Positions 13,809-26,649 are shown, counted from the first letter of the stretch. The stretch is DNA of 32,000 nucleotides from Vibrio algivorus (GCA_002218005.2 AP018679.1), one strand, 5' to 3'. The notes: generated from the letters alone by a model not told the origin. Made by a program: numbers and translations.

Positions 13809-13836
13809 ATTTAACATAATATACGTAATGCGCACT
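13809..13836. other. dif: dif, the 28-bp XerCD chromosome dimer resolution site (host XerD arm and 6-bp central region joined to a phage-derived XerC arm)
   Basis: ATTTAACATAA TATACG TAATGCGCACT. Its reverse complement, AGTGCGCATTA CGTATA TTATGTTAAAT, is near-identical to E. coli and V. cholerae dif as I remember them. It lies exactly at the left prophage boundary. Confidence 0.9.
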
Positions 13837-13837
13837 A

Positions 13838-15274
13838 TTAGATTGGTAAAATTGCATCCATATTGGGTAAGTCATTTCTCGATTTATTTGGTTGCATTGA
13901 ATTAGCCAGGTCTGTGATTGGATTGTTAACCTGGTCGCCAAAATCATTTGGTGTTTTTCTCATGTCACACGTCAGGAACTTACGAACGCCAGCTGTATTC
14001 ATTTCAACTAAACAATAATCTAAAACCTTAAATTGATAACCCATCTTTTCTAGCATTGAGTTATAAACATAAGATTCAGAGCCATCAGTCATTGTTTGTT
14101 TAAATACGATTGTTGGTATCACTTTTGTATCTGTTATTTTCAAACTGATGCCGCCTACATATACATTGGTAACATCAAATGGCCAAAGTTCAGGAACAGT
14201 GTTTACGCTGCGATTATTAAAAAACGGCTCACCACTCTCAGACAAAAGGCGACTATCATGAACATCATCAATCTGTACATTACGTATCTTAGAATCGGTT
14301 TTATCCATTGGTAAAACTTGGTTATTGGTTTGGCCAGTTTGGTTAACGGTTTGATTAGAATTGATATCCTGTGTTGAATCATCAGAATTATAACGTTGAT
14401 ACGCATCGATGCCCCCATAAATGACATAAAGAATTGAACAAAGCCCTAGCAACATTACTAAGACAAATTTGAAATTTGATAATGGACTAGAAGCAAGTCC
14501 TGATTTTGTTGTTTTGCCCGTTACTGTTGATTTATAAAGAAGATGAACCGCAAGAGGAACTTTAACCCGTCTACACTCTTCAGGCTTTGGACTGTTAAAG
14601 CTCGTTGCGTTTGGGTCATGTTCATACAATCTAGGTTTGCGCTTTGTGAAAAAAAACGAATCTTTAGATTTATGATGTATGGCAACCTCAGCACATGAAC
14701 GAACTTCAGTAGATAACTTTTTAATATTGGGTGTAACGAAAGTAATATCCCAGTTAAAGTGACGGTGTCTTGATATCGATTCTTCAAACGTTGGAGGTAA
14801 TCGAATGAGCCCATTATCATCAAATAAAGTTTCCCCTGAATCATCAATATCAATAGTTGATTCATCTGGTTTATAAGCCTCTAAAACACGGTTATAAAAA
14901 TCTGGATACCAGTCAGGCAAACCCTCTTTAAACTTTTCCAAACCTTGATATGTATTCTTAGCCATATCAAAGCCGACCGTTTTAGAATATATGTCCTGAC
15001 ATTCATCAATGATCATATAAGCGCCCATAGGCATCCAGTTGTAGAAGTTCTGCCACATATAACGGCCAGATTCAGTAAGCGAATAGATTTTTATAATTTT
15101 GGCTGATGGTGGAAATCGCTCACCTAGACGTTTTTCAATAGTTTCAACACTTTCCATACCTTGTATGTTTGTGACAACAACACGACCATTTCTAAGCGCA
15201 GGTAGTAAATCAAACCATACAGCGGTAGCTGACTTGTAAGAACCATTGGCACCATGACGAATTTTAACAGCCAT
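13838..15274 (-). CDS. Zot/pI-family phage assembly ATPase (gene I equivalent)
   Basis: Walker A-like GANGSYKS, Walker B MIIDEC, and WDITFVTP (compare Ff pI WDIIFLVQ). A central TM helix (FKFVLVMLLGLCSILYVIYGGI) is followed by an approximately 190-aa periplasmic C-terminal part. The stop codon lies 1 nt from the XerC arm. Confidence 0.88.
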   Translation of the reverse strand: MAVKIRHGANGSYKSATAVWFDLLPALRNGRVVVTNIQGMESVETIEKRLGERFPPSAKIIKIYSLTESGRYMWQNFYNWMPMGAYMIIDECQDIYSKTVGFDMAKNTYQGLEKFKEGLPDWYPDFYNRVLEAYKPDESTIDIDDSGETLFDDNGLIRLPPTFEESISRHRHFNWDITFVTPNIKKLSTEVRSCAEVAIHHKSKDSFFFTKRKPRLYEHDPNATSFNSPKPEECRRVKVPLAVHLLYKSTVTGKTTKSGLASSPLSNFKFVLVMLLGLCSILYVIYGGIDAYQRYNSDDSTQDINSNQTVNQTGQTNNQVLPMDKTDSKIRNVQIDDVHDSRLLSESGEPFFNNRSVNTVPELWPFDVTNVYVGGISLKITDTKVIPTIVFKQTMTDGSESYVYNSMLEKMGYQFKVLDYCLVEMNTAGVRKFLTCDMRKTPNDFGDQVNNPITDLANSMQPNKSRNDLPNMDAILPI

Positions 15275-15276
15275 AA

Positions 15277-15684
15277 TTAAGACCCCATGAAATCTAGAAC
15301 AAATCGAGTAACCATTGCTTCAACGATTCGGGTTAAACCAACAAAAATTCCATATTGATTCATCAAGCCTTTTTGCTGTGTTGAAAGACCTGAAAAAGCA
15401 TCATTAAGAAGTGAATCGAGGGAAAGATTTTGCATAAGTGAAATAGCTACACCATAAGCAAATTGAATAGATTCAAGCTGTAATTTGAGCTTAATAATCA
15501 CGCAATATTCAATGATGTAAGCGAACATTTGTTGAAAAAATGTAGGGGCATAACTGAAAAAATCACCAACATAATCCCCAATATCAACAAAATAACCAAT
15601 GATTGAGTTTTCTTCTTCTGGAGTAGCTGCATAAGTGCCAGACGAAAAAAACAAAAGTAAAAACGGAATAAAAAGGATCTTCAT
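15277..15684 (-). CDS. minor coat protein, gene VI positional equivalent (hydrophobic)
   Basis: 135-aa hydrophobic protein between the gIII-like and gI-like genes, separated by only 1-2 nt intergenic gaps. The assignment rests on position and hydrophobicity only. Confidence 0.6.
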   Translation of the reverse strand: MKILFIPFLLLFFSSGTYAATPEEENSIIGYFVDIGDYVGDFFSYAPTFFQQMFAYIIEYCVIIKLKLQLESIQFAYGVAISLMQNLSLDSLLNDAFSGLSTQQKGLMNQYGIFVGLTRIVEAMVTRFVLDFMGS

Positions 15685-15685
15685 C

Positions 15686-17089
15686 TTATCGTCTCCTTAC
15701 GATAATAATTGAAAAGGCAACCAGTGAACAAAGAGCAATGATTGCGGTAGAAATTAAGCTTGAATTATCAGACCAATATGAATTAGAAGTGCTAACAGTC
15801 CCCCATCTACCAGATAGAGTTATATTTTCATCAGAATAAGAACCTCCAGAGAAAGACGGAGCAATGTTTAAGTCAGTTTTAAACTGATTTATTTTGTCTT
15901 GAATCTGTTGAGTTAAATCATCTTTTTTCTGAGATAACTCGGCGAACTTTGAAGAATCAAAGACAGTAGAAAAATGATTCGATTGGGTGAAGTCCGGCAA
16001 ATCTCCAAACGGTGTTTTATTACAGTCTGGGTATTCTGGATTTTTATCACAAAATGATTTATTCATTTCATTTTCTATATTGTCTAAGTGCTTATTGGTT
16101 TGCGTAGTTCCTGAGAGTTGTTGACCAAGTTTCTTATTGATTTCTGTCTGTTGACCAAGTTGAGCTTTATAAAGTTTATTGTTCTGGTCAGATTTGGAAT
16201 CATAATTAGTAATAAACTCTTTCATTTTATGATTCATATTTTCAAGGTGTTGATTGGTAATAACCGCTTCTTTGTAAAGTGCATTATCCCCCTCGGTTAA
16301 ATTTGGGTTATCGCTAAGACTTGATGAATCTGGATTTTGATTAGGGTCATCCGTGAAAGGTGTATCAGAGTTATTACATAAATCGATACCTAATTCACAA
16401 GGATTAGGGTTTGAATTTAAATCATCAGGATTAGTAGATTCTTCTGGAATTTCTTCAGGCGGTGTTTCTGGAGGTAAAGCACACTCTTCATTTTCAGGAT
16501 TACAAATAGGTGTTTCTGGATTAGTTTCAGATTCACAAGTTAAACCCTGTATGCAATCTTTTTTATCATAATTACATGAAGTACTAACATCAGGTGAATT
16601 ATTTGACTCATTATCAACACAAGACCAATTAAAAACAGTTTCATAAAAAGAACTATTAGGATTGTTTAATTGACATGAATATTGTTCATTTTGAAATTGT
16701 TTTTGAATAGATGAATCGGAACAAAAAGTTGGTTCAATCTGACATCGACCATCAGAAGTTTCAACTGGATGAGTAGCAGGACAACCAGAAAAAGGAGAAA
16801 AAGAACCGTCATAGGCTGCTATTCTCACATTAGCAGAAGTAGCTTTGCACCAAATGCCATTCGAAACAACTTGAGGATTATCCAAACAAAGTTCTGTATC
16901 AAGTGAAGATAAATAGGGTAAACATAATGAATGTGGTTTGGATGAAAGATAAGTATCAAAATAAACAGGTTCACTTTTATAAAACGTACAACGGGCTTTT
17001 AAAATTACTTTATCAACTGTTTCAGCCTTAACGGGAATCGTATAAATATTAGAAAATACAAAAACGAAAAATAATAAAATCCATTTCAT
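15686..17089 (-). CDS. pIII-like minor coat / host-adsorption protein
   Basis: Signal peptide, a Cys-rich N-terminal domain, a Pro/Glu/Asn/Asp-rich low-complexity linker, and a C-terminal TM anchor ending in RRR (LISTAIIALCSLVAFSIIIVRRR). It occupies the gene III position. Confidence 0.8.
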   Translation of the reverse strand: MKWILLFFVFVFSNIYTIPVKAETVDKVILKARCTFYKSEPVYFDTYLSSKPHSLCLPYLSSLDTELCLDNPQVVSNGIWCKATSANVRIAAYDGSFSPFSGCPATHPVETSDGRCQIEPTFCSDSSIQKQFQNEQYSCQLNNPNSSFYETVFNWSCVDNESNNSPDVSTSCNYDKKDCIQGLTCESETNPETPICNPENEECALPPETPPEEIPEESTNPDDLNSNPNPCELGIDLCNNSDTPFTDDPNQNPDSSSLSDNPNLTEGDNALYKEAVITNQHLENMNHKMKEFITNYDSKSDQNNKLYKAQLGQQTEINKKLGQQLSGTTQTNKHLDNIENEMNKSFCDKNPEYPDCNKTPFGDLPDFTQSNHFSTVFDSSKFAELSQKKDDLTQQIQDKINQFKTDLNIAPSFSGGSYSDENITLSGRWGTVSTSNSYWSDNSSLISTAIIALCSLVAFSIIIVRRR

Positions 17090-17095
17090 AAGATC

Positions 17096-17119
17096 AAAAA
17101 AAGGGGCAATTAAGCCCCC
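17096..17119 (-). terminator. rho-independent terminator between the coat-gene block and the gIII-like gene
   Basis: The minus strand reads GGGGC TTAATT GCCCC followed by T7. This corresponds to the Ff terminator after gene VIII. Confidence 0.7.
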
Positions 17120-17136
17120 TCTCCTATAGTTAAAAA

Positions 17137-17229
17137 TTAATGTGTTTGAATGCCTGAAACAAAACCATAAATAAAGCTCATGGAGGATGAGATACCAAAA
17201 ATGATTTCTACAGGCATTGACCCCATCAT
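17137..17229 (-). CDS. 30-aa hydrophobic protein (candidate pVII/pIX-like minor coat protein; below the ORF-track cutoff)
   Basis: Hand translation: MMGSMPVEIIFGISSSMSFIYGFVSGIQTH. The ATG abuts the gVIII stop (TAAATG) and the ORF is followed by the terminator. Size and hydrophobicity resemble Ff pVII/pIX. Confidence 0.45.
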   Translation of the reverse strand: MMGSMPVEIIFGISSSMSFIYGFVSGIQTH

Positions 17230-17442
17230 TTACTTATTTAACCAACGAATAAGAAGACCCGCACCAAAGCCGATTGCAGCAACCGAAATAACGCCAGCAA
17301 CTACAAGAGTATAGTTTGCAGAAGAATCTGTAACCGCAGCATTAATATCAGTAGCGTAATCAGCAGCGAACGCAGTAGATGAAGCAGCAATAGAAGAAAC
17401 TACAGCACCAGTTTTTAGAGCAATGTTTTTAAAAGTTTTCAT
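17230..17442 (-). CDS. major coat protein (pVIII-type)
   Basis: Signal peptide ending AFA/AD. The approximately 44-aa mature part has an acidic N-terminus, a hydrophobic core (LVVAGVISVAAIGFGAGLLI) and a basic C-terminus (RWLNK). Confidence 0.88.
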   Translation of the reverse strand: MKTFKNIALKTGAVVSSIAASSTAFAADYATDINAAVTDSSANYTLVVAGVISVAAIGFGAGLLIRWLNK

Positions 17443-17466
17443 ATCAATATCCTATAAATAAAAAAA

Positions 17467-17670
17467 TTAAAGTTTGCTCATCCATCGTACGACTCGGCCA
17501 GCTCCATGACCAACGACAAACGAAAGTAAAAGATACCCAGAAACTTCCAGATATAGAGCTTTATCAAACACAAGGTTTGTTTGGGGAATGTCAGACGGTT
17601 CAAGCAAAATATAACCCTGACAAGTGTCATAGGTATCAGTTGTGACCTGACCATCTAACAAACATTTCAT
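17467..17670 (-). CDS. small phage protein with a C-terminal TM helix and basic tail (candidate minor coat protein)
   Basis: 67 aa. The C-terminus GYLLLSFVVGHGAGRVVRWMSKL resembles the coat-protein C-terminus. Its start overlaps the upstream stop (ATGA). Confidence 0.6.
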   Translation of the reverse strand: MKCLLDGQVTTDTYDTCQGYILLEPSDIPQTNLVFDKALYLEVSGYLLLSFVVGHGAGRVVRWMSKL

Positions 17671-17861
17671 ATATGACTCTCAAAAATTCCTAGTTCACGA
17701 ACACGCTTTAAATCAAGGACTTCGTTTGAACCGCAATCTTCACAAGAAATATCACCAATTAAAGAGCAGTCATTATCAGACCTAAATAACTGCCAATTGA
17801 TAGAAGATGAATCACAACAAGTACAAACTAAATCATCATCCTTTAAAGCAAATAAAGTCAT
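17667..17861 (-). CDS. Cys-rich 64-aa phage protein (zinc-ribbon-like CxCC...C...CxxC)
   Basis: MTLFALKDDDLVCTCCDSS...CSLIGDISCEDCGS. It is translationally coupled on both sides (TAATG with gV, ATGA with the next gene). Confidence 0.6.
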   Translation of the reverse strand: MTLFALKDDDLVCTCCDSSSINWQLFRSDNDCSLIGDISCEDCGSNEVLDLKRVRELGIFESHI

Positions 17862-18160
17862 TACGAAACCTTACTAAGTTGAGCCTGATTTACAGGAACT
17901 AATTTTAAGTTACGGTCGAACTCTAAGCGGTCGAACTGTCCAACCTTGAAAGAATCTTGGGTAAAATAATATTTACCCTCAGTGTATGCAGGTTGCCCTT
18001 CCTCAAGTGGAAGACGAAACTCAACAGGGAATTTACCGCCAGTATGAGCGTATGCAACTTGAGAATATAATTTCATCGCAGCTCGTTTATCATTTGCAGG
18101 CAGTTCGCGAACGTCTACCACTTCATTTTCTTTAAATACTTCGATAATTAATTGATTCAT
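17861..18160 (-). CDS. ssDNA-binding protein, Ff gene V homologue
   Basis: LEEGQPAYTEGKYYFTQDSFKVGQFDRLEFDRNLKLVP aligns with M13 gpV ...LDEGQPAYAPGLYTVHLSSFKVGQFGSLMIDRLRLVP (from memory). It is located directly after the replication gene. Confidence 0.88.
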   Translation of the reverse strand: MNQLIIEVFKENEVVDVRELPANDKRAAMKLYSQVAYAHTGGKFPVEFRLPLEEGQPAYTEGKYYFTQDSFKVGQFDRLEFDRNLKLVPVNQAQLSKVS

Positions 18161-18171
18161 TTTTTAATTCC

Positions 18172-18558
18172 TTATGCCACTAAGTGGATTACATTTTCAT
18201 CAAAACCATATAAACGGGAAATATCCCCTACTTTCTCTACATAATCAGACGGTCGCTGATTTGCGAAATCTATTTCAATAACTTGAAGTAATGGAACGAC
18301 ATTATCTTTTCCATTGCCTTGTAAATTCTGTAATTGAGCTTTGGAGAAACCCGCCTTAAGCAAAAGATTTAAATTATCGTAAAAAGTACTACTAGAACTA
18401 AAGGTATCTTTAACTGCATTGTAACCATCAGATACCAATGAACGATAAAAACGAAAAACTCTATCGGCCTTTGAATATGACATATTTCCTTTAGGTGTTA
18501 CTTTTACATAAATTGACTTTAAATTTGTATAAACTTCATCATCATTAAATATATTCAT
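18172..18558 (-). CDS. candidate nested gene X-like product (in-frame internal start within gII, 128 aa)
   Basis: Internal ATG at 18558 (Met304, MNIFNDDEV...) is preceded by AAGGGG 6 nt upstream. It aligns with the M13 gene X start (MNIYDDSAV). Confidence 0.45.
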   Translation of the reverse strand: MNIFNDDEVYTNLKSIYVKVTPKGNMSYSKADRVFRFYRSLVSDGYNAVKDTFSSSSTFYDNLNLLLKAGFSKAQLQNLQGNGKDNVVPLLQVIEIDFANQRPSDYVEKVGDISRLYGFDENVIHLVA

Positions 18559-19467
18559 CTTTTGCCCCTTAAGCGCATCTAACAACGGGCTGTACGCTCT
18601 TAACCATATATCTTTAATTAAACAGGATTTGTTTTCTTTTTCATATTTAACTTGATACTTAATAGCATCAATTAATTTTTTAGGTACTTCAAATTCATCT
18701 AAATATCTACGCTTTGCACTAGCTTCAAACCTAACAAGATTGCGAGCATAATTAATTAAAAAAGGGTCACTCATTACATCAATAACTTTATCGTATTCTT
18801 TTGAACCTTTTTCTTTAAGTGAGCGCAATTGATCTAATTGTCTTTTGAATTCAAAATATTTTAAATAAACCTTTCTATCAACATGGCGTGAATTCTTAGA
18901 AAAATATGCGGTAGTCTCATACTCATTACGAACACTAGATCGCATTTGTTTATTTGAAATATTCTTAAGCTGATTAATAACCTGCTTTGACATATCTTCA
19001 TTTTTAACACGAGCAGAATAAGTGCAATCGACACAATCCAAAGTAGCGTTTGGGATATCTAGCATGTTATAGAAATCAGAATAAGCATTAAGCAAGCACA
19101 TCATCATTTCAGTTGAACCATTCAAAATTGACGTTGAACCATAAACATTATGGCCCTGAATAATTTTGGCCGGACTCGCTTTTAACTCTACACAAGCATC
19201 ACGAAGCGGAGTTCCTTGAAAAATCTTAAACGCCATACCAGTAAAGGAAGTAGCTAAACTCTGATAAGGATGACGCAAGTCAGTAACTTCAAAACCGTCA
19301 TTGCGTTCGTTGCCAGTAAAATGAACAGATTTAGCTTCAAGACCTACACCACGAGAAGAACATTCCTTCAAATCAACATAACGAACGCACTGACCAGTAG
19401 CCGTCTGTTGAGTTTGAAGAAGATATTCTTCTTTAAACGGTATAGAGATTTTAAGCATATCAATCAT
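18172..19467 (-). CDS. rolling-circle replication initiator, Ff gene II homologue
   Basis: MIDML start, plus ...FTGMAFKIFQG...VELKASPAKIIQGHNVYG...LVRFEASAKRRYL...MNIFNDDEV...VVPLLQVIEIDFANQRP. These parallel M13 gpII (MIDMLVLRLPF..., VEIKASPAKVLQGHNVFG, LVRFEARIKTRYL, MNIYDDSAV, from memory). Confidence 0.9.
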   Translation of the reverse strand: MIDMLKISIPFKEEYLLQTQQTATGQCVRYVDLKECSSRGVGLEAKSVHFTGNERNDGFEVTDLRHPYQSLATSFTGMAFKIFQGTPLRDACVELKASPAKIIQGHNVYGSTSILNGSTEMMMCLLNAYSDFYNMLDIPNATLDCVDCTYSARVKNEDMSKQVINQLKNISNKQMRSSVRNEYETTAYFSKNSRHVDRKVYLKYFEFKRQLDQLRSLKEKGSKEYDKVIDVMSDPFLINYARNLVRFEASAKRRYLDEFEVPKKLIDAIKYQVKYEKENKSCLIKDIWLRAYSPLLDALKGQKMNIFNDDEVYTNLKSIYVKVTPKGNMSYSKADRVFRFYRSLVSDGYNAVKDTFSSSSTFYDNLNLLLKAGFSKAQLQNLQGNGKDNVVPLLQVIEIDFANQRPSDYVEKVGDISRLYGFDENVIHLVA

Positions 19468-19480
19468 AAAGGTAACTTTG

Positions 19481-19555
19481 TCACAAGTGATTTAGATTAT
19501 AAATTAATACATCATCACATGTGACAATGCAAGAAAAGATACAAATAACTTGTGA
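19481..19555. promoter_or_regulatory. divergent promoter/operator region: three copies of the palindromic motif TCACA(A/T)GTGA
   Basis: TCACAAGTGA at 19481-19490, the perfect palindrome TCACATGTGA at 19515-19524, and ACTTGTGA at 19548-19555 (reverse orientation, 8/10). Spacing is 34 and about 31 bp. A minus-strand TATAAT lies at 19496-19501, between the first two sites. Confidence 0.5.
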
Positions 19556-19599
19556 TGAAGTTACAATGTTATGAAGTGACTCGAAATTAAGGAGGCAAA

Positions 19600-19758
19600 A
19601 TGCCCACTCTAAGACTTGATGAAAAAAGATGGCGAGAGATTGAAAAAAAAGCCGTTGATATGACTATAAAGACACAAAAACCTGTAACGGTACCAGAAGT
19701 AATAAAGGCCGTACTAGATAAATGCTTAAAAGAATTGAAACCAGAAGATCTAAAGTAA
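19600..19758 (+). CDS. 52-aa ribbon-helix-helix-like transcriptional regulator, divergent from gII (RstR-position analogue; below the ORF-track cutoff)
   Basis: AAGGAGG SD 4 nt upstream of the ATG. Hand translation: MPTLRLDEKRWREIEKKAVDMTIKTQKPVTVPEVIKAVLDKCLKELKPEDLK, a short N-terminal strand followed by two helices. It is the only plus-strand gene in the phage and lies between the origin and gII. Confidence 0.6.
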   Translation: MPTLRLDEKRWREIEKKAVDMTIKTQKPVTVPEVIKAVLDKCLKELKPEDLK

Positions 19759-19775
19759 ATTCCGAAATCCGGACA

Positions 19776-19804
19776 AGAGTACACTATTAAAGATAGTGTA
19801 CTCT
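19776..19804 (-). other. plus-strand replication origin hairpin with an Ff-type gpII nick motif
   Basis: The minus strand reads AGAGTACACTAT CTTTA ATAGTGTACTCT, followed by TGTCCGGATTTCGGA. The core CTTTAATAGTGtACTCTTGT matches the f1/M13 origin GTTCTTTAATAGTGGACTCTTGTTCC (from memory). The stem is 12 bp and perfect. Confidence 0.75.
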
Positions 19805-20037
19805 CCCTGCCTCCTTGCTCCTCCGCGCTCAGCTTTCGCTTGTGCGTCGCAATCGTCCGGTCGAGATAAAAATCATTTTAAAAGAGAAAAGAATTCTAGA
19901 GGATGAAGGTTTTTTCATCTAACTGGTATGTCATTTTTTTAACATACCCAGCTTTGGTGCGGTTAGTGACGGATGTCCTCCGAGCACTATGAGAATGTAA
20001 TTACTATGCAGTAGCTTTAGAATTCGGGTGGGCTGAT

Positions 20038-20149
20038 AGTTCGCATTACGGCCATTATGCTAAAGGCGCACTTCGTGCGGTCGCCAGTGCTGCGCAATGG
20101 TACTGACGACCACGCTTTCAACATAATGCCAGACTACGTAATGCGCACT
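20038..20149. other. attP region at the copy 1/copy 2 junction: two inverted dif-like sites able to fold into a forked hairpin
   Basis: Site A (20038-20065) is AGTTCGCATTA CGGCCA TTATGCTAAAG. Site B (20116-20149) has the reverse complement AGTGCGCATTA CGTAGTCTGGCA TTATGTTGAAA. The arms are complementary, the central regions differ (6 versus 12 nt), and the inner stem CGTGCGGTCG/CGACCACG extends the hairpin. Confidence 0.8.
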
Positions 20150-20150
20150 A

Positions 20151-21587
20151 TTAGATTGGTAAAATTGCATCCATATTGGGTAAGTCATTTCTCGATTTAT
20201 TTGGTTGCATTGAATTAGCCAGGTCTGTGATTGGATTGTTAACCTGGTCGCCAAAATCATTTGGTGTTTTTCTCATGTCACACGTCAGGAACTTACGAAC
20301 GCCAGCTGTATTCATTTCAACTAAACAATAATCTAAAACCTTAAATTGATAACCCATCTTTTCTAGCATTGAGTTATAAACATAAGATTCAGAGCCATCA
20401 GTCATTGTTTGTTTAAATACGATTGTTGGTATCACTTTTGTATCTGTTATTTTCAAACTGATGCCGCCTACATATACATTGGTAACATCAAATGGCCAAA
20501 GTTCAGGAACAGTGTTTACGCTGCGATTATTAAAAAACGGCTCACCACTCTCAGACAAAAGGCGACTATCATGAACATCATCAATCTGTACATTACGTAT
20601 CTTAGAATCGGTTTTATCCATTGGTAAAACTTGGTTATTGGTTTGGCCAGTTTGGTTAACGGTTTGATTAGAATTGATATCCTGTGTTGAATCATCAGAA
20701 TTATAACGTTGATACGCATCGATGCCCCCATAAATGACATAAAGAATTGAACAAAGCCCTAGCAACATTACTAAGACAAATTTGAAATTTGATAATGGAC
20801 TAGAAGCAAGTCCTGATTTTGTTGTTTTGCCCGTTACTGTTGATTTATAAAGAAGATGAACCGCAAGAGGAACTTTAACCCGTCTACACTCTTCAGGCTT
20901 TGGACTGTTAAAGCTCGTTGCGTTTGGGTCATGTTCATACAATCTAGGTTTGCGCTTTGTGAAAAAAAACGAATCTTTAGATTTATGATGTATGGCAACC
21001 TCAGCACATGAACGAACTTCAGTAGATAACTTTTTAATATTGGGTGTAACGAAAGTAATATCCCAGTTAAAGTGACGGTGTCTTGATATCGATTCTTCAA
21101 ACGTTGGAGGTAATCGAATGAGCCCATTATCATCAAATAAAGTTTCCCCTGAATCATCAATATCAATAGTTGATTCATCTGGTTTATAAGCCTCTAAAAC
21201 ACGGTTATAAAAATCTGGATACCAGTCAGGCAAACCCTCTTTAAACTTTTCCAAACCTTGATATGTATTCTTAGCCATATCAAAGCCGACCGTTTTAGAA
21301 TATATGTCCTGACATTCATCAATGATCATATAAGCGCCCATAGGCATCCAGTTGTAGAAGTTCTGCCACATATAACGGCCAGATTCAGTAAGCGAATAGA
21401 TTTTTATAATTTTGGCTGATGGTGGAAATCGCTCACCTAGACGTTTTTCAATAGTTTCAACACTTTCCATACCTTGTATGTTTGTGACAACAACACGACC
21501 ATTTCTAAGCGCAGGTAGTAAATCAAACCATACAGCGGTAGCTGACTTGTAAGAACCATTGGCACCATGACGAATTTTAACAGCCAT
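20151..21587 (-). CDS. Zot/pI-family phage assembly ATPase (copy 2)
   Basis: Translation identical to 13838..15274. Confidence 0.88.
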   Translation of the reverse strand: MAVKIRHGANGSYKSATAVWFDLLPALRNGRVVVTNIQGMESVETIEKRLGERFPPSAKIIKIYSLTESGRYMWQNFYNWMPMGAYMIIDECQDIYSKTVGFDMAKNTYQGLEKFKEGLPDWYPDFYNRVLEAYKPDESTIDIDDSGETLFDDNGLIRLPPTFEESISRHRHFNWDITFVTPNIKKLSTEVRSCAEVAIHHKSKDSFFFTKRKPRLYEHDPNATSFNSPKPEECRRVKVPLAVHLLYKSTVTGKTTKSGLASSPLSNFKFVLVMLLGLCSILYVIYGGIDAYQRYNSDDSTQDINSNQTVNQTGQTNNQVLPMDKTDSKIRNVQIDDVHDSRLLSESGEPFFNNRSVNTVPELWPFDVTNVYVGGISLKITDTKVIPTIVFKQTMTDGSESYVYNSMLEKMGYQFKVLDYCLVEMNTAGVRKFLTCDMRKTPNDFGDQVNNPITDLANSMQPNKSRNDLPNMDAILPI

Positions 21588-21589
21588 AA

Positions 21590-21997
21590 TTAAGACCCCA
21601 TGAAATCTAGAACAAATCGAGTAACCATTGCTTCAACGATTCGGGTTAAACCAACAAAAATTCCATATTGATTCATCAAGCCTTTTTGCTGTGTTGAAAG
21701 ACCTGAAAAAGCATCATTAAGAAGTGAATCGAGGGAAAGATTTTGCATAAGTGAAATAGCTACACCATAAGCAAATTGAATAGATTCAAGCTGTAATTTG
21801 AGCTTAATAATCACGCAATATTCAATGATGTAAGCGAACATTTGTTGAAAAAATGTAGGGGCATAACTGAAAAAATCACCAACATAATCCCCAATATCAA
21901 CAAAATAACCAATGATTGAGTTTTCTTCTTCTGGAGTAGCTGCATAAGTGCCAGACGAAAAAAACAAAAGTAAAAACGGAATAAAAAGGATCTTCAT
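21590..21997 (-). CDS. gene VI-position minor coat protein (copy 2)
   Basis: Translation identical to 15277..15684. Confidence 0.6.
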   Translation of the reverse strand: MKILFIPFLLLFFSSGTYAATPEEENSIIGYFVDIGDYVGDFFSYAPTFFQQMFAYIIEYCVIIKLKLQLESIQFAYGVAISLMQNLSLDSLLNDAFSGLSTQQKGLMNQYGIFVGLTRIVEAMVTRFVLDFMGS

Positions 21998-21998
21998 C

Positions 21999-23402
21999 TT
22001 ATCGTCTCCTTACGATAATAATTGAAAAGGCAACCAGTGAACAAAGAGCAATGATTGCGGTAGAAATTAAGCTTGAATTATCAGACCAATATGAATTAGA
22101 AGTGCTAACAGTCCCCCATCTACCAGATAGAGTTATATTTTCATCAGAATAAGAACCTCCAGAGAAAGACGGAGCAATGTTTAAGTCAGTTTTAAACTGA
22201 TTTATTTTGTCTTGAATCTGTTGAGTTAAATCATCTTTTTTCTGAGATAACTCGGCGAACTTTGAAGAATCAAAGACAGTAGAAAAATGATTCGATTGGG
22301 TGAAGTCCGGCAAATCTCCAAACGGTGTTTTATTACAGTCTGGGTATTCTGGATTTTTATCACAAAATGATTTATTCATTTCATTTTCTATATTGTCTAA
22401 GTGCTTATTGGTTTGCGTAGTTCCTGAGAGTTGTTGACCAAGTTTCTTATTGATTTCTGTCTGTTGACCAAGTTGAGCTTTATAAAGTTTATTGTTCTGG
22501 TCAGATTTGGAATCATAATTAGTAATAAACTCTTTCATTTTATGATTCATATTTTCAAGGTGTTGATTGGTAATAACCGCTTCTTTGTAAAGTGCATTAT
22601 CCCCCTCGGTTAAATTTGGGTTATCGCTAAGACTTGATGAATCTGGATTTTGATTAGGGTCATCCGTGAAAGGTGTATCAGAGTTATTACATAAATCGAT
22701 ACCTAATTCACAAGGATTAGGGTTTGAATTTAAATCATCAGGATTAGTAGATTCTTCTGGAATTTCTTCAGGCGGTGTTTCTGGAGGTAAAGCACACTCT
22801 TCATTTTCAGGATTACAAATAGGTGTTTCTGGATTAGTTTCAGATTCACAAGTTAAACCCTGTATGCAATCTTTTTTATCATAATTACATGAAGTACTAA
22901 CATCAGGTGAATTATTTGACTCATTATCAACACAAGACCAATTAAAAACAGTTTCATAAAAAGAACTATTAGGATTGTTTAATTGACATGAATATTGTTC
23001 ATTTTGAAATTGTTTTTGAATAGATGAATCGGAACAAAAAGTTGGTTCAATCTGACATCGACCATCAGAAGTTTCAACTGGATGAGTAGCAGGACAACCA
23101 GAAAAAGGAGAAAAAGAACCGTCATAGGCTGCTATTCTCACATTAGCAGAAGTAGCTTTGCACCAAATGCCATTCGAAACAACTTGAGGATTATCCAAAC
23201 AAAGTTCTGTATCAAGTGAAGATAAATAGGGTAAACATAATGAATGTGGTTTGGATGAAAGATAAGTATCAAAATAAACAGGTTCACTTTTATAAAACGT
23301 ACAACGGGCTTTTAAAATTACTTTATCAACTGTTTCAGCCTTAACGGGAATCGTATAAATATTAGAAAATACAAAAACGAAAAATAATAAAATCCATTTC
23401 AT
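21999..23402 (-). CDS. pIII-like adsorption protein (copy 2)
   Basis: Translation identical to 15686..17089. Confidence 0.8.
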   Translation of the reverse strand: MKWILLFFVFVFSNIYTIPVKAETVDKVILKARCTFYKSEPVYFDTYLSSKPHSLCLPYLSSLDTELCLDNPQVVSNGIWCKATSANVRIAAYDGSFSPFSGCPATHPVETSDGRCQIEPTFCSDSSIQKQFQNEQYSCQLNNPNSSFYETVFNWSCVDNESNNSPDVSTSCNYDKKDCIQGLTCESETNPETPICNPENEECALPPETPPEEIPEESTNPDDLNSNPNPCELGIDLCNNSDTPFTDDPNQNPDSSSLSDNPNLTEGDNALYKEAVITNQHLENMNHKMKEFITNYDSKSDQNNKLYKAQLGQQTEINKKLGQQLSGTTQTNKHLDNIENEMNKSFCDKNPEYPDCNKTPFGDLPDFTQSNHFSTVFDSSKFAELSQKKDDLTQQIQDKINQFKTDLNIAPSFSGGSYSDENITLSGRWGTVSTSNSYWSDNSSLISTAIIALCSLVAFSIIIVRRR

Positions 23403-23408
23403 AAGATC

Positions 23409-23432
23409 AAAAAAAGGGGCAATTAAGCCCCC
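23409..23432 (-). terminator. phage internal terminator (copy 2)
   Basis: Same sequence as 17096..17119. Confidence 0.7.
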
Positions 23433-23449
23433 TCTCCTATAGTTAAAAA

Positions 23450-23542
23450 TTAATGTGTTTGAATGCCTGAAACAAAACCATAAATAAAGCTCATGGAGGA
23501 TGAGATACCAAAAATGATTTCTACAGGCATTGACCCCATCAT
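23450..23542 (-). CDS. 30-aa hydrophobic protein (copy 2)
   Basis: Same sequence as 17137..17229. Confidence 0.45.
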   Translation of the reverse strand: MMGSMPVEIIFGISSSMSFIYGFVSGIQTH

Positions 23543-23755
23543 TTACTTATTTAACCAACGAATAAGAAGACCCGCACCAAAGCCGATTGCAGCAACCGAA
23601 ATAACGCCAGCAACTACAAGAGTATAGTTTGCAGAAGAATCTGTAACCGCAGCATTAATATCAGTAGCGTAATCAGCAGCGAACGCAGTAGATGAAGCAG
23701 CAATAGAAGAAACTACAGCACCAGTTTTTAGAGCAATGTTTTTAAAAGTTTTCAT
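23543..23755 (-). CDS. major coat protein (copy 2)
   Basis: Translation identical to 17230..17442. Confidence 0.88.
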   Translation of the reverse strand: MKTFKNIALKTGAVVSSIAASSTAFAADYATDINAAVTDSSANYTLVVAGVISVAAIGFGAGLLIRWLNK

Positions 23756-23779
23756 ATCAATATCCTATAAATAAAAAAA

Positions 23780-23983
23780 TTAAAGTTTGCTCATCCATCG
23801 TACGACTCGGCCAGCTCCATGACCAACGACAAACGAAAGTAAAAGATACCCAGAAACTTCCAGATATAGAGCTTTATCAAACACAAGGTTTGTTTGGGGA
23901 ATGTCAGACGGTTCAAGCAAAATATAACCCTGACAAGTGTCATAGGTATCAGTTGTGACCTGACCATCTAACAAACATTTCAT
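23780..23983 (-). CDS. 67-aa TM-tailed phage protein (copy 2)
   Basis: Translation identical to 17467..17670. Confidence 0.6.
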   Translation of the reverse strand: MKCLLDGQVTTDTYDTCQGYILLEPSDIPQTNLVFDKALYLEVSGYLLLSFVVGHGAGRVVRWMSKL

Positions 23984-24174
23984 ATATGACTCTCAAAAAT
24001 TCCTAGTTCACGAACACGCTTTAAATCAAGGACTTCGTTTGAACCGCAATCTTCACAAGAAATATCACCAATTAAAGAGCAGTCATTATCAGACCTAAAT
24101 AACTGCCAATTGATAGAAGATGAATCACAACAAGTACAAACTAAATCATCATCCTTTAAAGCAAATAAAGTCAT
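23980..24174 (-). CDS. Cys-rich 64-aa phage protein (copy 2)
   Basis: Translation identical to 17667..17861. Confidence 0.6.
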   Translation of the reverse strand: MTLFALKDDDLVCTCCDSSSINWQLFRSDNDCSLIGDISCEDCGSNEVLDLKRVRELGIFESHI

Positions 24175-24473
24175 TACGAAACCTTACTAAGTTGAGCCTG
24201 ATTTACAGGAACTAATTTTAAGTTACGGTCGAACTCTAAGCGGTCGAACTGTCCAACCTTGAAAGAATCTTGGGTAAAATAATATTTACCCTCAGTGTAT
24301 GCAGGTTGCCCTTCCTCAAGTGGAAGACGAAACTCAACAGGGAATTTACCGCCAGTATGAGCGTATGCAACTTGAGAATATAATTTCATCGCAGCTCGTT
24401 TATCATTTGCAGGCAGTTCGCGAACGTCTACCACTTCATTTTCTTTAAATACTTCGATAATTAATTGATTCAT
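24174..24473 (-). CDS. gene V-like ssDNA-binding protein (copy 2)
   Basis: Translation identical to 17861..18160. Confidence 0.88.
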   Translation of the reverse strand: MNQLIIEVFKENEVVDVRELPANDKRAAMKLYSQVAYAHTGGKFPVEFRLPLEEGQPAYTEGKYYFTQDSFKVGQFDRLEFDRNLKLVPVNQAQLSKVS

Positions 24474-24484
24474 TTTTTAATTCC

Positions 24485-25780
24485 TTATGCCACTAAGTGG
24501 ATTACATTTTCATCAAAACCATATAAACGGGAAATATCCCCTACTTTCTCTACATAATCAGACGGTCGCTGATTTGCGAAATCTATTTCAATAACTTGAA
24601 GTAATGGAACGACATTATCTTTTCCATTGCCTTGTAAATTCTGTAATTGAGCTTTGGAGAAACCCGCCTTAAGCAAAAGATTTAAATTATCGTAAAAAGT
24701 ACTACTAGAACTAAAGGTATCTTTAACTGCATTGTAACCATCAGATACCAATGAACGATAAAAACGAAAAACTCTATCGGCCTTTGAATATGACATATTT
24801 CCTTTAGGTGTTACTTTTACATAAATTGACTTTAAATTTGTATAAACTTCATCATCATTAAATATATTCATCTTTTGCCCCTTAAGCGCATCTAACAACG
24901 GGCTGTACGCTCTTAACCATATATCTTTAATTAAACAGGATTTGTTTTCTTTTTCATATTTAACTTGATACTTAATAGCATCAATTAATTTTTTAGGTAC
25001 TTCAAATTCATCTAAATATCTACGCTTTGCACTAGCTTCAAACCTAACAAGATTGCGAGCATAATTAATTAAAAAAGGGTCACTCATTACATCAATAACT
25101 TTATCGTATTCTTTTGAACCTTTTTCTTTAAGTGAGCGCAATTGATCTAATTGTCTTTTGAATTCAAAATATTTTAAATAAACCTTTCTATCAACATGGC
25201 GTGAATTCTTAGAAAAATATGCGGTAGTCTCATACTCATTACGAACACTAGATCGCATTTGTTTATTTGAAATATTCTTAAGCTGATTAATAACCTGCTT
25301 TGACATATCTTCATTTTTAACACGAGCAGAATAAGTGCAATCGACACAATCCAAAGTAGCGTTTGGGATATCTAGCATGTTATAGAAATCAGAATAAGCA
25401 TTAAGCAAGCACATCATCATTTCAGTTGAACCATTCAAAATTGACGTTGAACCATAAACATTATGGCCCTGAATAATTTTGGCCGGACTCGCTTTTAACT
25501 CTACACAAGCATCACGAAGCGGAGTTCCTTGAAAAATCTTAAACGCCATACCAGTAAAGGAAGTAGCTAAACTCTGATAAGGATGACGCAAGTCAGTAAC
25601 TTCAAAACCGTCATTGCGTTCGTTGCCAGTAAAATGAACAGATTTAGCTTCAAGACCTACACCACGAGAAGAACATTCCTTCAAATCAACATAACGAACG
25701 CACTGACCAGTAGCCGTCTGTTGAGTTTGAAGAAGATATTCTTCTTTAAACGGTATAGAGATTTTAAGCATATCAATCAT
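24485..25780 (-). CDS. gene II-like replication initiator (copy 2; nested gX-like start at 24871)
   Basis: Translation identical to 18172..19467. Confidence 0.9.
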   Translation of the reverse strand: MIDMLKISIPFKEEYLLQTQQTATGQCVRYVDLKECSSRGVGLEAKSVHFTGNERNDGFEVTDLRHPYQSLATSFTGMAFKIFQGTPLRDACVELKASPAKIIQGHNVYGSTSILNGSTEMMMCLLNAYSDFYNMLDIPNATLDCVDCTYSARVKNEDMSKQVINQLKNISNKQMRSSVRNEYETTAYFSKNSRHVDRKVYLKYFEFKRQLDQLRSLKEKGSKEYDKVIDVMSDPFLINYARNLVRFEASAKRRYLDEFEVPKKLIDAIKYQVKYEKENKSCLIKDIWLRAYSPLLDALKGQKMNIFNDDEVYTNLKSIYVKVTPKGNMSYSKADRVFRFYRSLVSDGYNAVKDTFSSSSTFYDNLNLLLKAGFSKAQLQNLQGNGKDNVVPLLQVIEIDFANQRPSDYVEKVGDISRLYGFDENVIHLVA

Positions 25781-25793
25781 AAAGGTAACTTTG

Positions 25794-25868
25794 TCACAAG
25801 TGATTTAGATTATAAATTAATACATCATCACATGTGACAATGCAAGAAAAGATACAAATAACTTGTGA
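25794..25868. promoter_or_regulatory. operator/promoter region (copy 2)
   Basis: Same sequence as 19481..19555. Confidence 0.5.
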
Positions 25869-25912
25869 TGAAGTTACAATGTTATGAAGTGACTCGAAAT
25901 TAAGGAGGCAAA

Positions 25913-26071
25913 ATGCCCACTCTAAGACTTGATGAAAAAAGATGGCGAGAGATTGAAAAAAAAGCCGTTGATATGACTATAAAGACACAAAAACCTGTAA
26001 CGGTACCAGAAGTAATAAAGGCCGTACTAGATAAATGCTTAAAAGAATTGAAACCAGAAGATCTAAAGTAA
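25913..26071 (+). CDS. 52-aa RHH-like regulator (copy 2)
   Basis: Same sequence as 19600..19758. Confidence 0.6.
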   Translation: MPTLRLDEKRWREIEKKAVDMTIKTQKPVTVPEVIKAVLDKCLKELKPEDLK

Positions 26072-26088
26072 ATTCCGAAATCCGGACA

Positions 26089-26117
26089 AGAGTACACTAT
26101 TAAAGATAGTGTACTCT
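26089..26117 (-). other. plus-strand origin hairpin (copy 2)
   Basis: Same sequence as 19776..19804. Confidence 0.75.
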
Positions 26118-26350
26118 CCCTGCCTCCTTGCTCCTCCGCGCTCAGCTTTCGCTTGTGCGTCGCAATCGTCCGGTCGAGATAAAAATCATTTTAAAAGAGA
26201 AAAGAATTCTAGAGGATGAAGGTTTTTTCATCTAACTGGTATGTCATTTTTTTAACATACCCAGCTTTGGTGCGGTTAGTGACGGATGTCCTCCGAGCAC
26301 TATGAGAATGTAATTACTATGCAGTAGCTTTAGAATTCGGGTGGGCTGAT

Positions 26351-26462
26351 AGTTCGCATTACGGCCATTATGCTAAAGGCGCACTTCGTGCGGTCGCCAG
26401 TGCTGCGCAATGGTACTGACGACCACGCTTTCAACATAATGCCAGACTACGTAATACGCACT
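26351..26462. other. attP-derived region and right prophage/host junction (phage XerD-like arm, 12-bp central region, host XerC arm)
   Basis: 26429-26462 reads TTTCAACATAA TGCCAGACTACG TAATACGCACT. The XerC arm carries A at 26456 where the other two copies carry G. Sequence to the right (AAAGTTGTAGG...) is unrelated to the phage. Confidence 0.8.
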
Positions 26463-26649
26463 AAAGTTGTAGGCGCAAAGTAGTAATATCACCTTTAACA
26501 AAGTTAACATATGGTACTTTCATCTTAGTTTTACTATACCGCCGACAATAGTTTGTAGGTTACTTATCAAGTGGTTGTGGAGATTTTATTGCATGGCGGC
26601 CTATTAGAACGATAACTATAATTTTAATCCATCACCTTTTAGTTACCAC

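Follow-up and report, generated by a model that had tools for sequence, protein, structure and literature searches.

How can a filamentous phage that carries no integrase insert itself into the chromosome of its host? For CTXphi, the published answer involves two phage sites, attP1 with a 12-bp spacer and attP2 with a spacer of 5-7 bp, which lie inverted and ~90 bp apart, are unusable as duplexes, and fold together in the (+) single-stranded DNA (ssDNA); on this substrate, XerC alone exchanges one pair of strands, and replication completes an integration that is irreversible (PMC4246890, PMC3089051). Its specificity is determined by homology to dif in the part of the spacer that lies beside the XerC arm (PMC4246890). 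Phages of this kind are counted among the integrative mobile elements that exploit Xer (IMEXs), and the Vibrio inoviruses of the “CTX-II” class have no ctxAB and no xafT, begin (once integrated) with the repressor gene rstR, end in zot, measure 6.7 +/- 0.7 kb, and stand in arrays in 94.9% of cases (Commun Biol 2025; PMC12715192). Here, we consider a stretch of 32,000 nt from Vibrio algivorus (GCA_002218005.2 AP018679.1), which we call the window, and argue that it very probably holds a tandem pair of identical 6.3-kb filamentous prophages, an integrase-less IMEX of the CTXphi type, in the dif site linked to ccoN.

Three Xer sites delimit the pair, all of them oriented on the minus strand and given here as read on the plus strand. 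The left site (13809-13836), ATTTAACATAA-TATACG-TAATGCGCACT, consists of a host XerD arm (13809-13819), a host spacer of 6 bp (13820-13825), and a phage-derived XerC arm (13826-13836) with G at 13830; it fits the Vibrio dif consensus ATTTAACATAA(N)6TAATRCGHASY (PMC12715192), and its XerD arm and spacer are identical to those of two empty sites (L001 and L002) that we describe below. The middle junction (20116-20149), TTTCAACATAA-TGCCAGACTACG-TAATGCGCACT, is an intact phage attP1 with a 12-nt spacer and G at 20143 (on the minus strand, AGTGCGCATTA-CGTAGTCTGGCA-TTATGTTGAAA), and its XerC arm is the same as that of the left site. The far (right) junction (26429-26462), TTTCAACATAA-TGCCAGACTACG-TAATACGCACT, has A at 26456 and joins the XerC arm of the target dif (AGTGCGTATTA) to the 12-nt spacer and XerD arm of the phage. 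Between these sites lie unit 1 (13837-20149), which adjoins the dif with the 6-bp spacer, and unit 2 (20150-26462), which is distal to it—both on the minus strand, both of 6313 bp, repeated with a period of 6313 bp, and 100% identical to each other. The identical run extends over 6321 bp (13822-20142 against 20135-26455), and the sole difference in 6328 compared bases is the G at 20143 against the A at 26456. An earlier note on this DNA had described the left junction as a canonical 28-bp dif, the middle and right junctions as sites with a 12-nt spacer, and the XerC arm as carrying G in the first two and A in the third; direct reading bears all of this out, to the base. For a loose dif motif, CATAA-N6-12-TAATRYG, the window has five matches where 0.24 would be expected, none of 100 shuffles having as many as five; three of the matches are the sites just described, and the other two lie on the opposite strand at 20042-20059 and 26355-26372.

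That the prophages sit exactly in dif, as had also been claimed, is a matter of observation, because prophage-free loci of the same species have a single 28-bp dif there with contiguous flanks. In two such loci, L001 (GCA_007623795.1) and L002 (SRR27362814), the flanks are 98.3-99.8% identical to the window, the genes for a 137-aa and a 111-aa protein are adjacent, and the dif stands precisely at the point of insertion. Nor is the G/A polymorphism an artifact of the window's assembly, because DRR129659 carries both alleles: A at the right-hand junction, where the unitig (L003) is anchored in that flank, and G at the left-hand one, where the unitig (L013) is anchored in the left flank. A further unitig (L019, 6321 bp) runs from ATTACGTA to ATTACGTA and ends precisely at both branch points, and the right flank of DRR129659 is 100% identical to that of the window over 1738 bp. 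DRR129659 is a short-read assembly separate from the window, and its source strain might be the same.

Where did the strands cross? At the left site, host spacer and host XerD arm stand together, as do phage spacer and phage XerD arm at the far site. Each spacer has thus stayed with its XerD arm, which places the exchange, as judged from these products, on the XerC side, at or to the left of the fourth spacer nucleotide, however the polymorphism arose, and rules out an exchange on the XerD side. Phage and host share TACGTAAT plus the arm, 15 bp in all, and the G/A difference narrows this to the 8 bp of TACGTAAT itself (13822-13829, minus strand), an interval that begins where the identical run begins (13822) and is bounded on the spacer side by base 13821 (A, against C at 20134) and on the arm side by the G/A position (13830/20143/26456). 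By the Xer biochemistry of PMC4246890, XerC is expected to cleave between 13825 and 13826 (ATTA^CGTA), which falls inside the interval. Homology between the spacers lies solely beside the XerC arm—CGTA followed by GTCTGGCA in the phage against CGTA followed by TA in the host—and the same rule holds in five relatives. The order of parts that the earlier note had worked out (target XerC arm, phage spacer, phage XerD arm, phage, phage XerC arm, host spacer, host XerD arm) is confirmed and places the exchange at the border between XerC arm and spacer; its confinement to 13822-13829 also stands, as both bounds are informative differences. What needs rewording is the claim that the polymorphism maps the crossover: it does narrow 15 bp to 8 bp, but the spacers alone already give the XerC side.

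The XerC-side reading, although essentially right, was incomplete, since each unit has a second, inverted site that had been overlooked. A motif scan places this attP2-like site, AGTTCGCATTA-CGGCCA-TTATGCTAAAG, on the plus strand at 20038-20065 (copy 2, 26351-26378), inverted with respect to attP1 and 50 nt inside each of the sites with a 12-nt spacer. Folded as DNA, the minus strand from 20030 to 20157 reaches -29.8 kcal/mol (z -4.83; 0 of 200 shuffles as good) and is predicted to form a forked attP(+) hairpin (20036-20151, loop of ~50 nt) with the XerC arms paired at 10 of 11 positions, a 6-nt bulge (TAGTCT), and the XerD arms paired; the plus strand folds less well (z -3.07). A forked hairpin with co-varying arms is found in six relatives from at least five Vibrio species, and the inverted partner is present in all seven family members with an attP region examined, this phage included. 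The segment made up of attP1 and the loop matches CTXphi in many records, where it is annotated attR (blastn, 82% over 76 nt, E 1e-9), and the alignment to one of them (KF664568.1, L029 390-560) can be followed through the loop as far as attP2, across an internal gap of ~42 nt. On the strength of this alignment, we take the resemblance to the CTXphi attP(+) hairpin to be homology and not mere analogy. On the coding strand, attP1 reads XerC arm, spacer, XerD arm, and the prophage ends at attP1, not at attP2; if the coding strand is the one that is packaged, both the placement of the junctions and this polarity are what ssDNA integration requires. The “12-bp central region” of the earlier note, then, has the right spacing but does not belong to a site recombined as a duplex. 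Paired with the inverted site, it supplies one strand of a forked hairpin, and because of this the integration substrate was most likely folded (+) ssDNA, as it is for CTXphi.

If so, integration might have gone as follows. The (+) ssDNA of the phage, corresponding to the minus strand of the window, would fold between the inverted attP1 (12-nt spacer) and attP2 (6-nt spacer) into a forked hairpin, its XerC and XerD arms paired on either side of a bulged center. Host XerC would cleave the attP1 strand and the top strand of dif at the border of arm and spacer (ATTA^CGTA), one pair of strands would be exchanged and stabilized by the four nucleotides CGTA that attP1 has in common with the host spacer CGTATA, and replication would turn the resulting pseudo-Holliday junction into a linear insertion. 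The far junction (26429-26462) would retain the XerC arm of the target dif, and the regenerated dif (13809-13836) would gain that of the phage; in the G/A difference, G would be the base of the phage arm and A that of the dif first entered. A second copy would have entered the regenerated dif, or arrived by an equivalent route, leaving an all-phage middle junction; if the array arose by sequential integration, unit 1 would be the more recent insertion and unit 2 the older. What can be read in the sequence itself is where the sites lie, that the copies are identical, that a hairpin can form, that attP is homologous to that of CTXphi, that there are empty sites, and that junctions in other species run parallel; catalysis by XerC only and resolution through replication would follow by analogy with CTXphi. 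By sequence and spacing, the products are one regenerated dif together with attP1 and attP2 sites. As duplexes, the sites with 12-nt spacers would be dead, and for CTXphi, attP1 has been published as Xer-incompetent in duplex form (PMC4246890, PMC3089051). The left site does keep a 6-bp spacer, as the earlier note had it, and this regenerated dif evidently accepted, or adjoins, the second copy; it would function as a dif and could receive further IMEXs, which agrees with the CTXphi literature. Going by CTXphi, a tandem array would also allow ssDNA to be produced by rolling circle from the origin of one unit to that of the next, and were that so, the middle junction (G) would be packaged and the far junction (A) never.

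Whose allele is G, and whose is A? We attribute G to the phage, reasoning from sequence, because it is the base in the all-phage middle junction and is complementary to attP2, where A would add a mismatch. The attribution of A to the target dif is less secure. It is a known variant of the Vibrio dif, R in the consensus TAATRCG (PMC12715192). Within the phage family, attP1 has both alleles (L017 and L028 against L014 and L016), and in CTXphi, the position that varies here, arm position 7, shows a C/T difference between the annotated attR (AGTGCGCATTA, KF664568.1) and the free attP1 (AGTGCGTATTA, PMC3089051). A mismatch in the hairpin was considered as the cause of G/A and rejected, the sole XerC-arm mismatch being at arm position 4, not 7. 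A metagenome scan for the window-type right flank (...CGCACTAAAGTTGTAGG... / ...ACTAAAGTTGTAGG...) with an XerC arm bearing either G or A gave no match, which we put down to a lack of data. As a separate observation, the exact 28-mer that the earlier note had predicted as ancestral, ATTTAACATAATATACGTAATACGCACT, is present in Vibrio sp. F74 (L005, 3436-3456 region).

Integrated relatives from four species, their sites tabulated on the phage (+) strand, allow the same junctions to be looked at elsewhere. In V. cincinnatiensis, a tandem array occupies the same locus, a DUF2861/UPF0181-to-ccoN neighborhood syntenic with the window. Its far junction is AGTGCGCATTA-TGTGGCGCGTCA-TTATGTTGAGG, its middle junction has the arm AGTACGCATTA with the spacer and XerD arm of the far junction, and its regenerated dif is AGTACGCATTA-TGTAGG-TTATGTTAAAT; site for site, this reads as the window's pattern at a different arm position. 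In V. alginolyticus, single copies in two strains have the far arm AGTTCGTATTA and the regenerated-dif arm AGTGCGCATTA, and a third strain has that far arm and its flank too, but ahead of another IMEX, one whose spacer is 7 nt. Throughout the cases tabulated, the first 2-4 nucleotides of the attP1 spacer equal those of the host dif spacer. The ccoN-linked dif of V. cincinnatiensis has the spacer TGTAGG (L021 15370-15397), and a second dif elsewhere in that species has CGTATA (L008/L009; TATACG on the other strand); the ccoN-linked dif of V. algivorus has CGTATA. From the syntenic pair, TGTAGG in V. cincinnatiensis against CGTATA in V. algivorus, it follows that the spacer differs between species and that the attP1 spacer tracks it. 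Incidentally, the V. cincinnatiensis relative is a single base away from CTXphi in its attP1 spacer and XerD arm. Natural arm polymorphisms in three species provide support, from sequence only, for XerC-side exchange outside V. cholerae. Some of these arrays have other tenants: that of V. mediterranei (CP033577.1; L025/L026) has at least three copies and an RS1-like Rep_trans/RstB element as well as repeated units of ~2 kb that encode a MarR-like protein, and in V. cyclitrophicus (L027/L028) and V. alginolyticus (L023), a Rep_trans inovirus adjoins a phage of the pII type.

There is one feature of the locus for which this mechanism has no place. A 13-bp patch, made up of the outermost 7 nt of the XerC arm and the 6 nt beyond them, is hypervariable among V. 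algivorus strains: ACGCACT AAAGTT in the window (26456-26468), GCGAACT TAGTGT in L001 (4585-4597), and GCGCATT AATAAT followed by a 19-bp duplication, GTAAGCGCAAAGTAGTAAT, in L002 (4585-4616). The reconstructed empty site differs from L001 at 16 positions over ~2 kb, and 6 of the 16 are in the patch; across the three conspecific strains, at least 6 of the 13 patch positions differ, against ~0.5% in the flanks. Exchange on the XerC side accounts for the phage arm in the regenerated dif but leaves unexplained how strongly strains vary in the host-side arm and the 6 bp past it. Indeed, neither the patch nor the duplication in L002 is explained by Xer strand exchange as it is currently understood. 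Could the XerC arm of the V. algivorus dif be a rolling record of past IMEX traffic, with later loss of prophages whose integration is considered irreversible? We offer this as a tentative idea, possible but doubtful. Each integration would overwrite the arm with that of the phage, and loss would leave behind the arm and a few phage nucleotides, and if this were true, it would explain both the variability of the patch and “host” flanks that look like phage. The window's flank, AAAGTT, resembles the AAGGTT of a phage (L014), and the empty site of Vibrio sp. CK2-1, AAGGTGTA, resembles a phage end in V. mediterranei, AAGGTGTG; host flanks of this phage-end-like kind may be a lead on the variation of the patch, albeit a weak one.

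A number of points weigh against the reading of the window as a CTXphi-type insertion, and they should be set out together. All four empty sites examined have G and not A in the XerC arm (plus strand): TAATGCGAACT and TAATGCGCATT in the conspecific loci L001 and L002, respectively, and TAATGCGCACT in both L004 and L010, which come from related species. An ancestral dif bearing A was not found in V. algivorus, where two prophage-free loci could be consulted, and the ancestral site that had been predicted, ATTTAACATAATATACGTAATACGCACT with its A, is matched by neither of these loci nor by the two related species. The earlier note had itself named G in prophage-free relatives as the result that would refute it. 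Taken literally, it does; the test is weak and not decisive, however, because three V. algivorus strains have three different arms (TAATGCGAACT, TAATGCGCATT, and TAATACGCACT) within the hypervariable patch. No free phage genome or replicative form was found in phage records, viral contigs, or metagenomes. The replication module is of the Ff/IKe type, and the classic Ff/IKe phages replicate as episomes and are not known to integrate. The packaged strand would be the minus strand of the window, as read from gene orientation only; to our knowledge, the coding strand is the packaged strand in all characterized inoviruses. Xer catalysis, the hairpin in vivo, and the activity of each site are predictions. 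Finally, the 32-kb window contains no octamers of the FtsK-orienting polar sequence type (KOPS) and no flip in GC skew at 1-kb resolution, a scale that is uninformative about the terminus.

Might the arrangement have come about in some other way? Identical tandem repeats of 6.3 kb are difficult to assemble, and the duplication and the G/A difference could be imagined as products of repeat assembly or polishing, but we give this next to no credence: DRR129659 shows both alleles on uniquely anchored unitigs and breaks at both branch points, copy number being the one thing that it leaves unverified. A second idea, the implicit assumption of the earlier note, is that the phage integrates as a double-stranded replicative form through the 34-bp site alone, as VGJphi-type phages do, the inverted site being irrelevant. 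We judge this highly improbable. It would account for junctions that fall at the 34-bp site, and XerC-side exchange of a duplex attP is established for phages of the VGJphi type (PMC4246890), but with a spacer of 12 nt, like the one here, CTXphi attP1 is reported to be unsuitable for Xer as a duplex (PMC4246890). The partner site, moreover, is inverted in 7 of 7 members, co-varies in its arms in six, and is homologous to attP2 of CTXphi, and VGJ-type integration, with its 7-bp spacer, leaves two Xer-compatible sites, unlike what is seen here. A 7-nt-spacer site does occur in L023, where it belongs to a different, Rep_trans IMEX.

The other alternative concerns the A at 26456. Suppose that the target dif had G and that the far site, being unselected, later mutated at this one base, from C to T on the minus strand; the polymorphism would then be uninformative about the position of exchange. 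In its favor, the substitution would be a transition, a far junction predicted to have no function could drift freely, and the four empty sites examined, from the species and its closest relatives, all have G. What makes such a mutation unlikely, in our estimation, is that little time has passed since integration, because the units show no substitution between them over 6313 bp and the right flank of DRR129659 is 100% identical over 1738 bp; we estimate at no more than 1% the chance that a given 11-bp arm would be struck. No two of the V. algivorus strains seen have the same XerC arm, A is an ordinary allele of the Vibrio dif (PMC12715192; L005), and V. cincinnatiensis and V. alginolyticus too have far arms that depart from the phage arms, at other positions. 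We continue with the reading of CTXphi-type integration in which A is probably a remnant of the first target.

Neither the mechanism nor the class is new: both are already published, and the element is a further CTX-type IMEX that fits the CTX-II class (PMC12715192). Every feature by which a CTX-type IMEX can be recognized in sequence is found in it. Like CTXphi, it has no integrase; it has inverted dif-like sites, attP1 with a 12-nt spacer and attP2 with a short one, and a predicted (+)-strand forked hairpin; its junctions are at attP1, and its spacer is homologous to dif on the XerC side only; there is one regenerated dif, with dead attP1 and attP2 (here predicted), in a tandem array; a small divergent open reading frame (ORF) lies upstream of the replication gene, and zot lies at the opposite end; and the attP regions are homologous as DNA (82% over 76 nt). 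It differs from CTXphi in having a pII/pX/pV module (PF05144, PF05155, PF02303) where CTXphi has RstA/RstB (Rep_trans), in having no ctxAB, in a hairpin loop that is ~42 nt shorter in the alignment, in a XerC-proximal spacer that is CGTA, matching the host dif spacer CGTATA, instead of TGT, and in its host, V. algivorus. The RstA/RstB module and ctxAB that mark Affertcholeramvirus, that is, CTXphi proper, are both missing. With CTX-II, it shares the lack of CtxAB and XafT, an end in zot, its size (6.3 kb), its tandem array, and att sites that fit the motif NYKNWMCATAA(N)6-12TAATRYGHABY (PMC12715192), the repressor at the start of the genome being represented here by a candidate 52-aa ORF only.

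The IMEXs of the VGJphi and TLCphi types also use dif and the host's XerCD and lack an integrase, and the element belongs to neither. In VGJphi-type phages, a single attP acts as a duplex, its spacer is 7 bp, and integration is reversible, whereas here the spacer is 12 nt, there is an inverted partner, and the far junction keeps the 12-nt spacing; TLCphi-type elements have a degenerate XerD arm, begin with XerD, and rely on XafT, whereas here the XerD arm (TTATGTTGAAA) is well conserved and the exchange is on the XerC side. Elements of these types often share arrays with pII-type relatives, as do the Rep_trans elements in L023, L026, and L027. The likeness to the Ff/IKe phages (M13, fd, IKe, and Erwinia PEar) is of another sort: pII is ~40% identical, the gene order is pII-pV-coat-pIII-pVI-pI, and the genome is ~6.4 kb. 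The difference is that the lineage described here carries the CTX-type attP module and forms prophage arrays at dif across Vibrionaceae. Because attP is homologous to that of CTXphi while the replication module is unrelated (pII vs. RstA), the comparison suggests that the attP hairpin module moves between inovirus backbones.

Each unit has a complete inovirus gene set, all of it on the minus strand, and we give the genes from dif outward with the coordinates of the second copy after those of the first. The terminal gene, for a pI/Zot-like assembly ATPase (13838-15274; 20151-21587), matches PF05707 (E 5.7e-43) and phrog_197; its stop codon ends 1 bp from the XerC arm, leaving no room for xafT, and there is no extra ORF beyond it. 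A pVI/Ace-like minor coat protein follows (15277-15684; 21590-21997; phrog_306, E 1.5e-22, with DUF2523 below the curated cut-off). The next product (15686-17089; 21999-23402) has no significant family match in Pfam or PHROGs and is a putative pIII-like receptor-binding minor coat protein, so named from its size and its place between the coat gene and pVI. The major coat protein (17230-17442; 23543-23755) matches phrog_1859 (E 6.7e-20), and the pV ssDNA-binding protein (17861-18160; 24174-24473) matches PF02303 (E 2.1e-17) and phrog_1199. The rolling-circle initiator, pII of the Ff/IKe type with a nested pX (18172-19467; 24485-25780), matches PF05144 (E 4.6e-53) and PF05155 (E 2.7e-18). Divergent from it, on the plus strand, is a conserved 52-aa ORF (19600-19758; 25913-26071), which in most relatives has a counterpart 69-98% identical in the same position; it has no family match in Pfam, and its AlphaFold model, of low confidence (pLDDT 66), has an extended N terminus and two helices. 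Beside it lies a 29-bp palindrome (19776-19804; 26089-26117), and the two are candidates for a repressor and its operator at the position of rstR.

One unit has, counting both strands, 23 ORFs of at least 50 aa, and 10 of them were scanned with Pfam and PHROGs (all 8 coding-strand ORFs of at least 60 aa and 2 others); these yielded only inovirus replication, coat, and assembly families, with no recombinase or integrase, no Rep_trans or RstB, and no toxin gene among them. The ~40% identity of pII to the proteins of IKe, Erwinia PEar, and M13-like phages extends over 97% of its length. It is 100% identical to a protein named from Vibrio algivorus, and its identity to prophage proteins of Aliivibrio and many Vibrio species is 65-74%; it matches 56 phage records, none of them under a Vibrio organism name. 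A homolog (P0064, 67% identical) is labeled as a Flavobacteriaceae metagenome-assembled genome and stands on a 6.6-kb contig, probably a mis-binned inovirus of the Vibrio type. Compared as a whole by megablast with 50,697 phage records, the phage unit matched none, and a search of viral contigs and metagenomes for the exact attP1 pattern turned up no free or otherwise integrated copy.

On the left, the host flank contains ccoNOQP and the 137-aa ORF; on the right, it contains the 111-aa ORF, a ScsC/DsbA-like gene, DUF413, a LysR regulator, UPF0181, and DUF2861, and a look-up of the ScsC/DsbA neighbor found nothing on record. In V. cholerae N16961, we take the cco operon (VC1439-1442) to lie near CTX/dif1 (VC1456-1465), which would make the V. 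algivorus site the dif of chromosome 1. A scan of a genome collection for a 21-nt dif half-site returned seven other Vibrio records, useful only for the spectrum of XerC arms, and no record of V. algivorus, although both the window and L001 contain the 21-mer; the species may be represented there by another assembly, or the stretch may be masked.

What, then, does this array add? The accepted model of CTXphi-type integration is left unchanged by it. What it does is extend the CTXphi strategy of integration to an Ff/IKe-like lineage that is widespread in Vibrionaceae as prophage arrays in dif, with an attP spacer re-tuned (CGTA for TGT) to a different host dif. In practical terms, the array may be of use in annotating the borders of IMEXs, and it may serve as a simple system, outside cholera, in which to study the integration of ssDNA.

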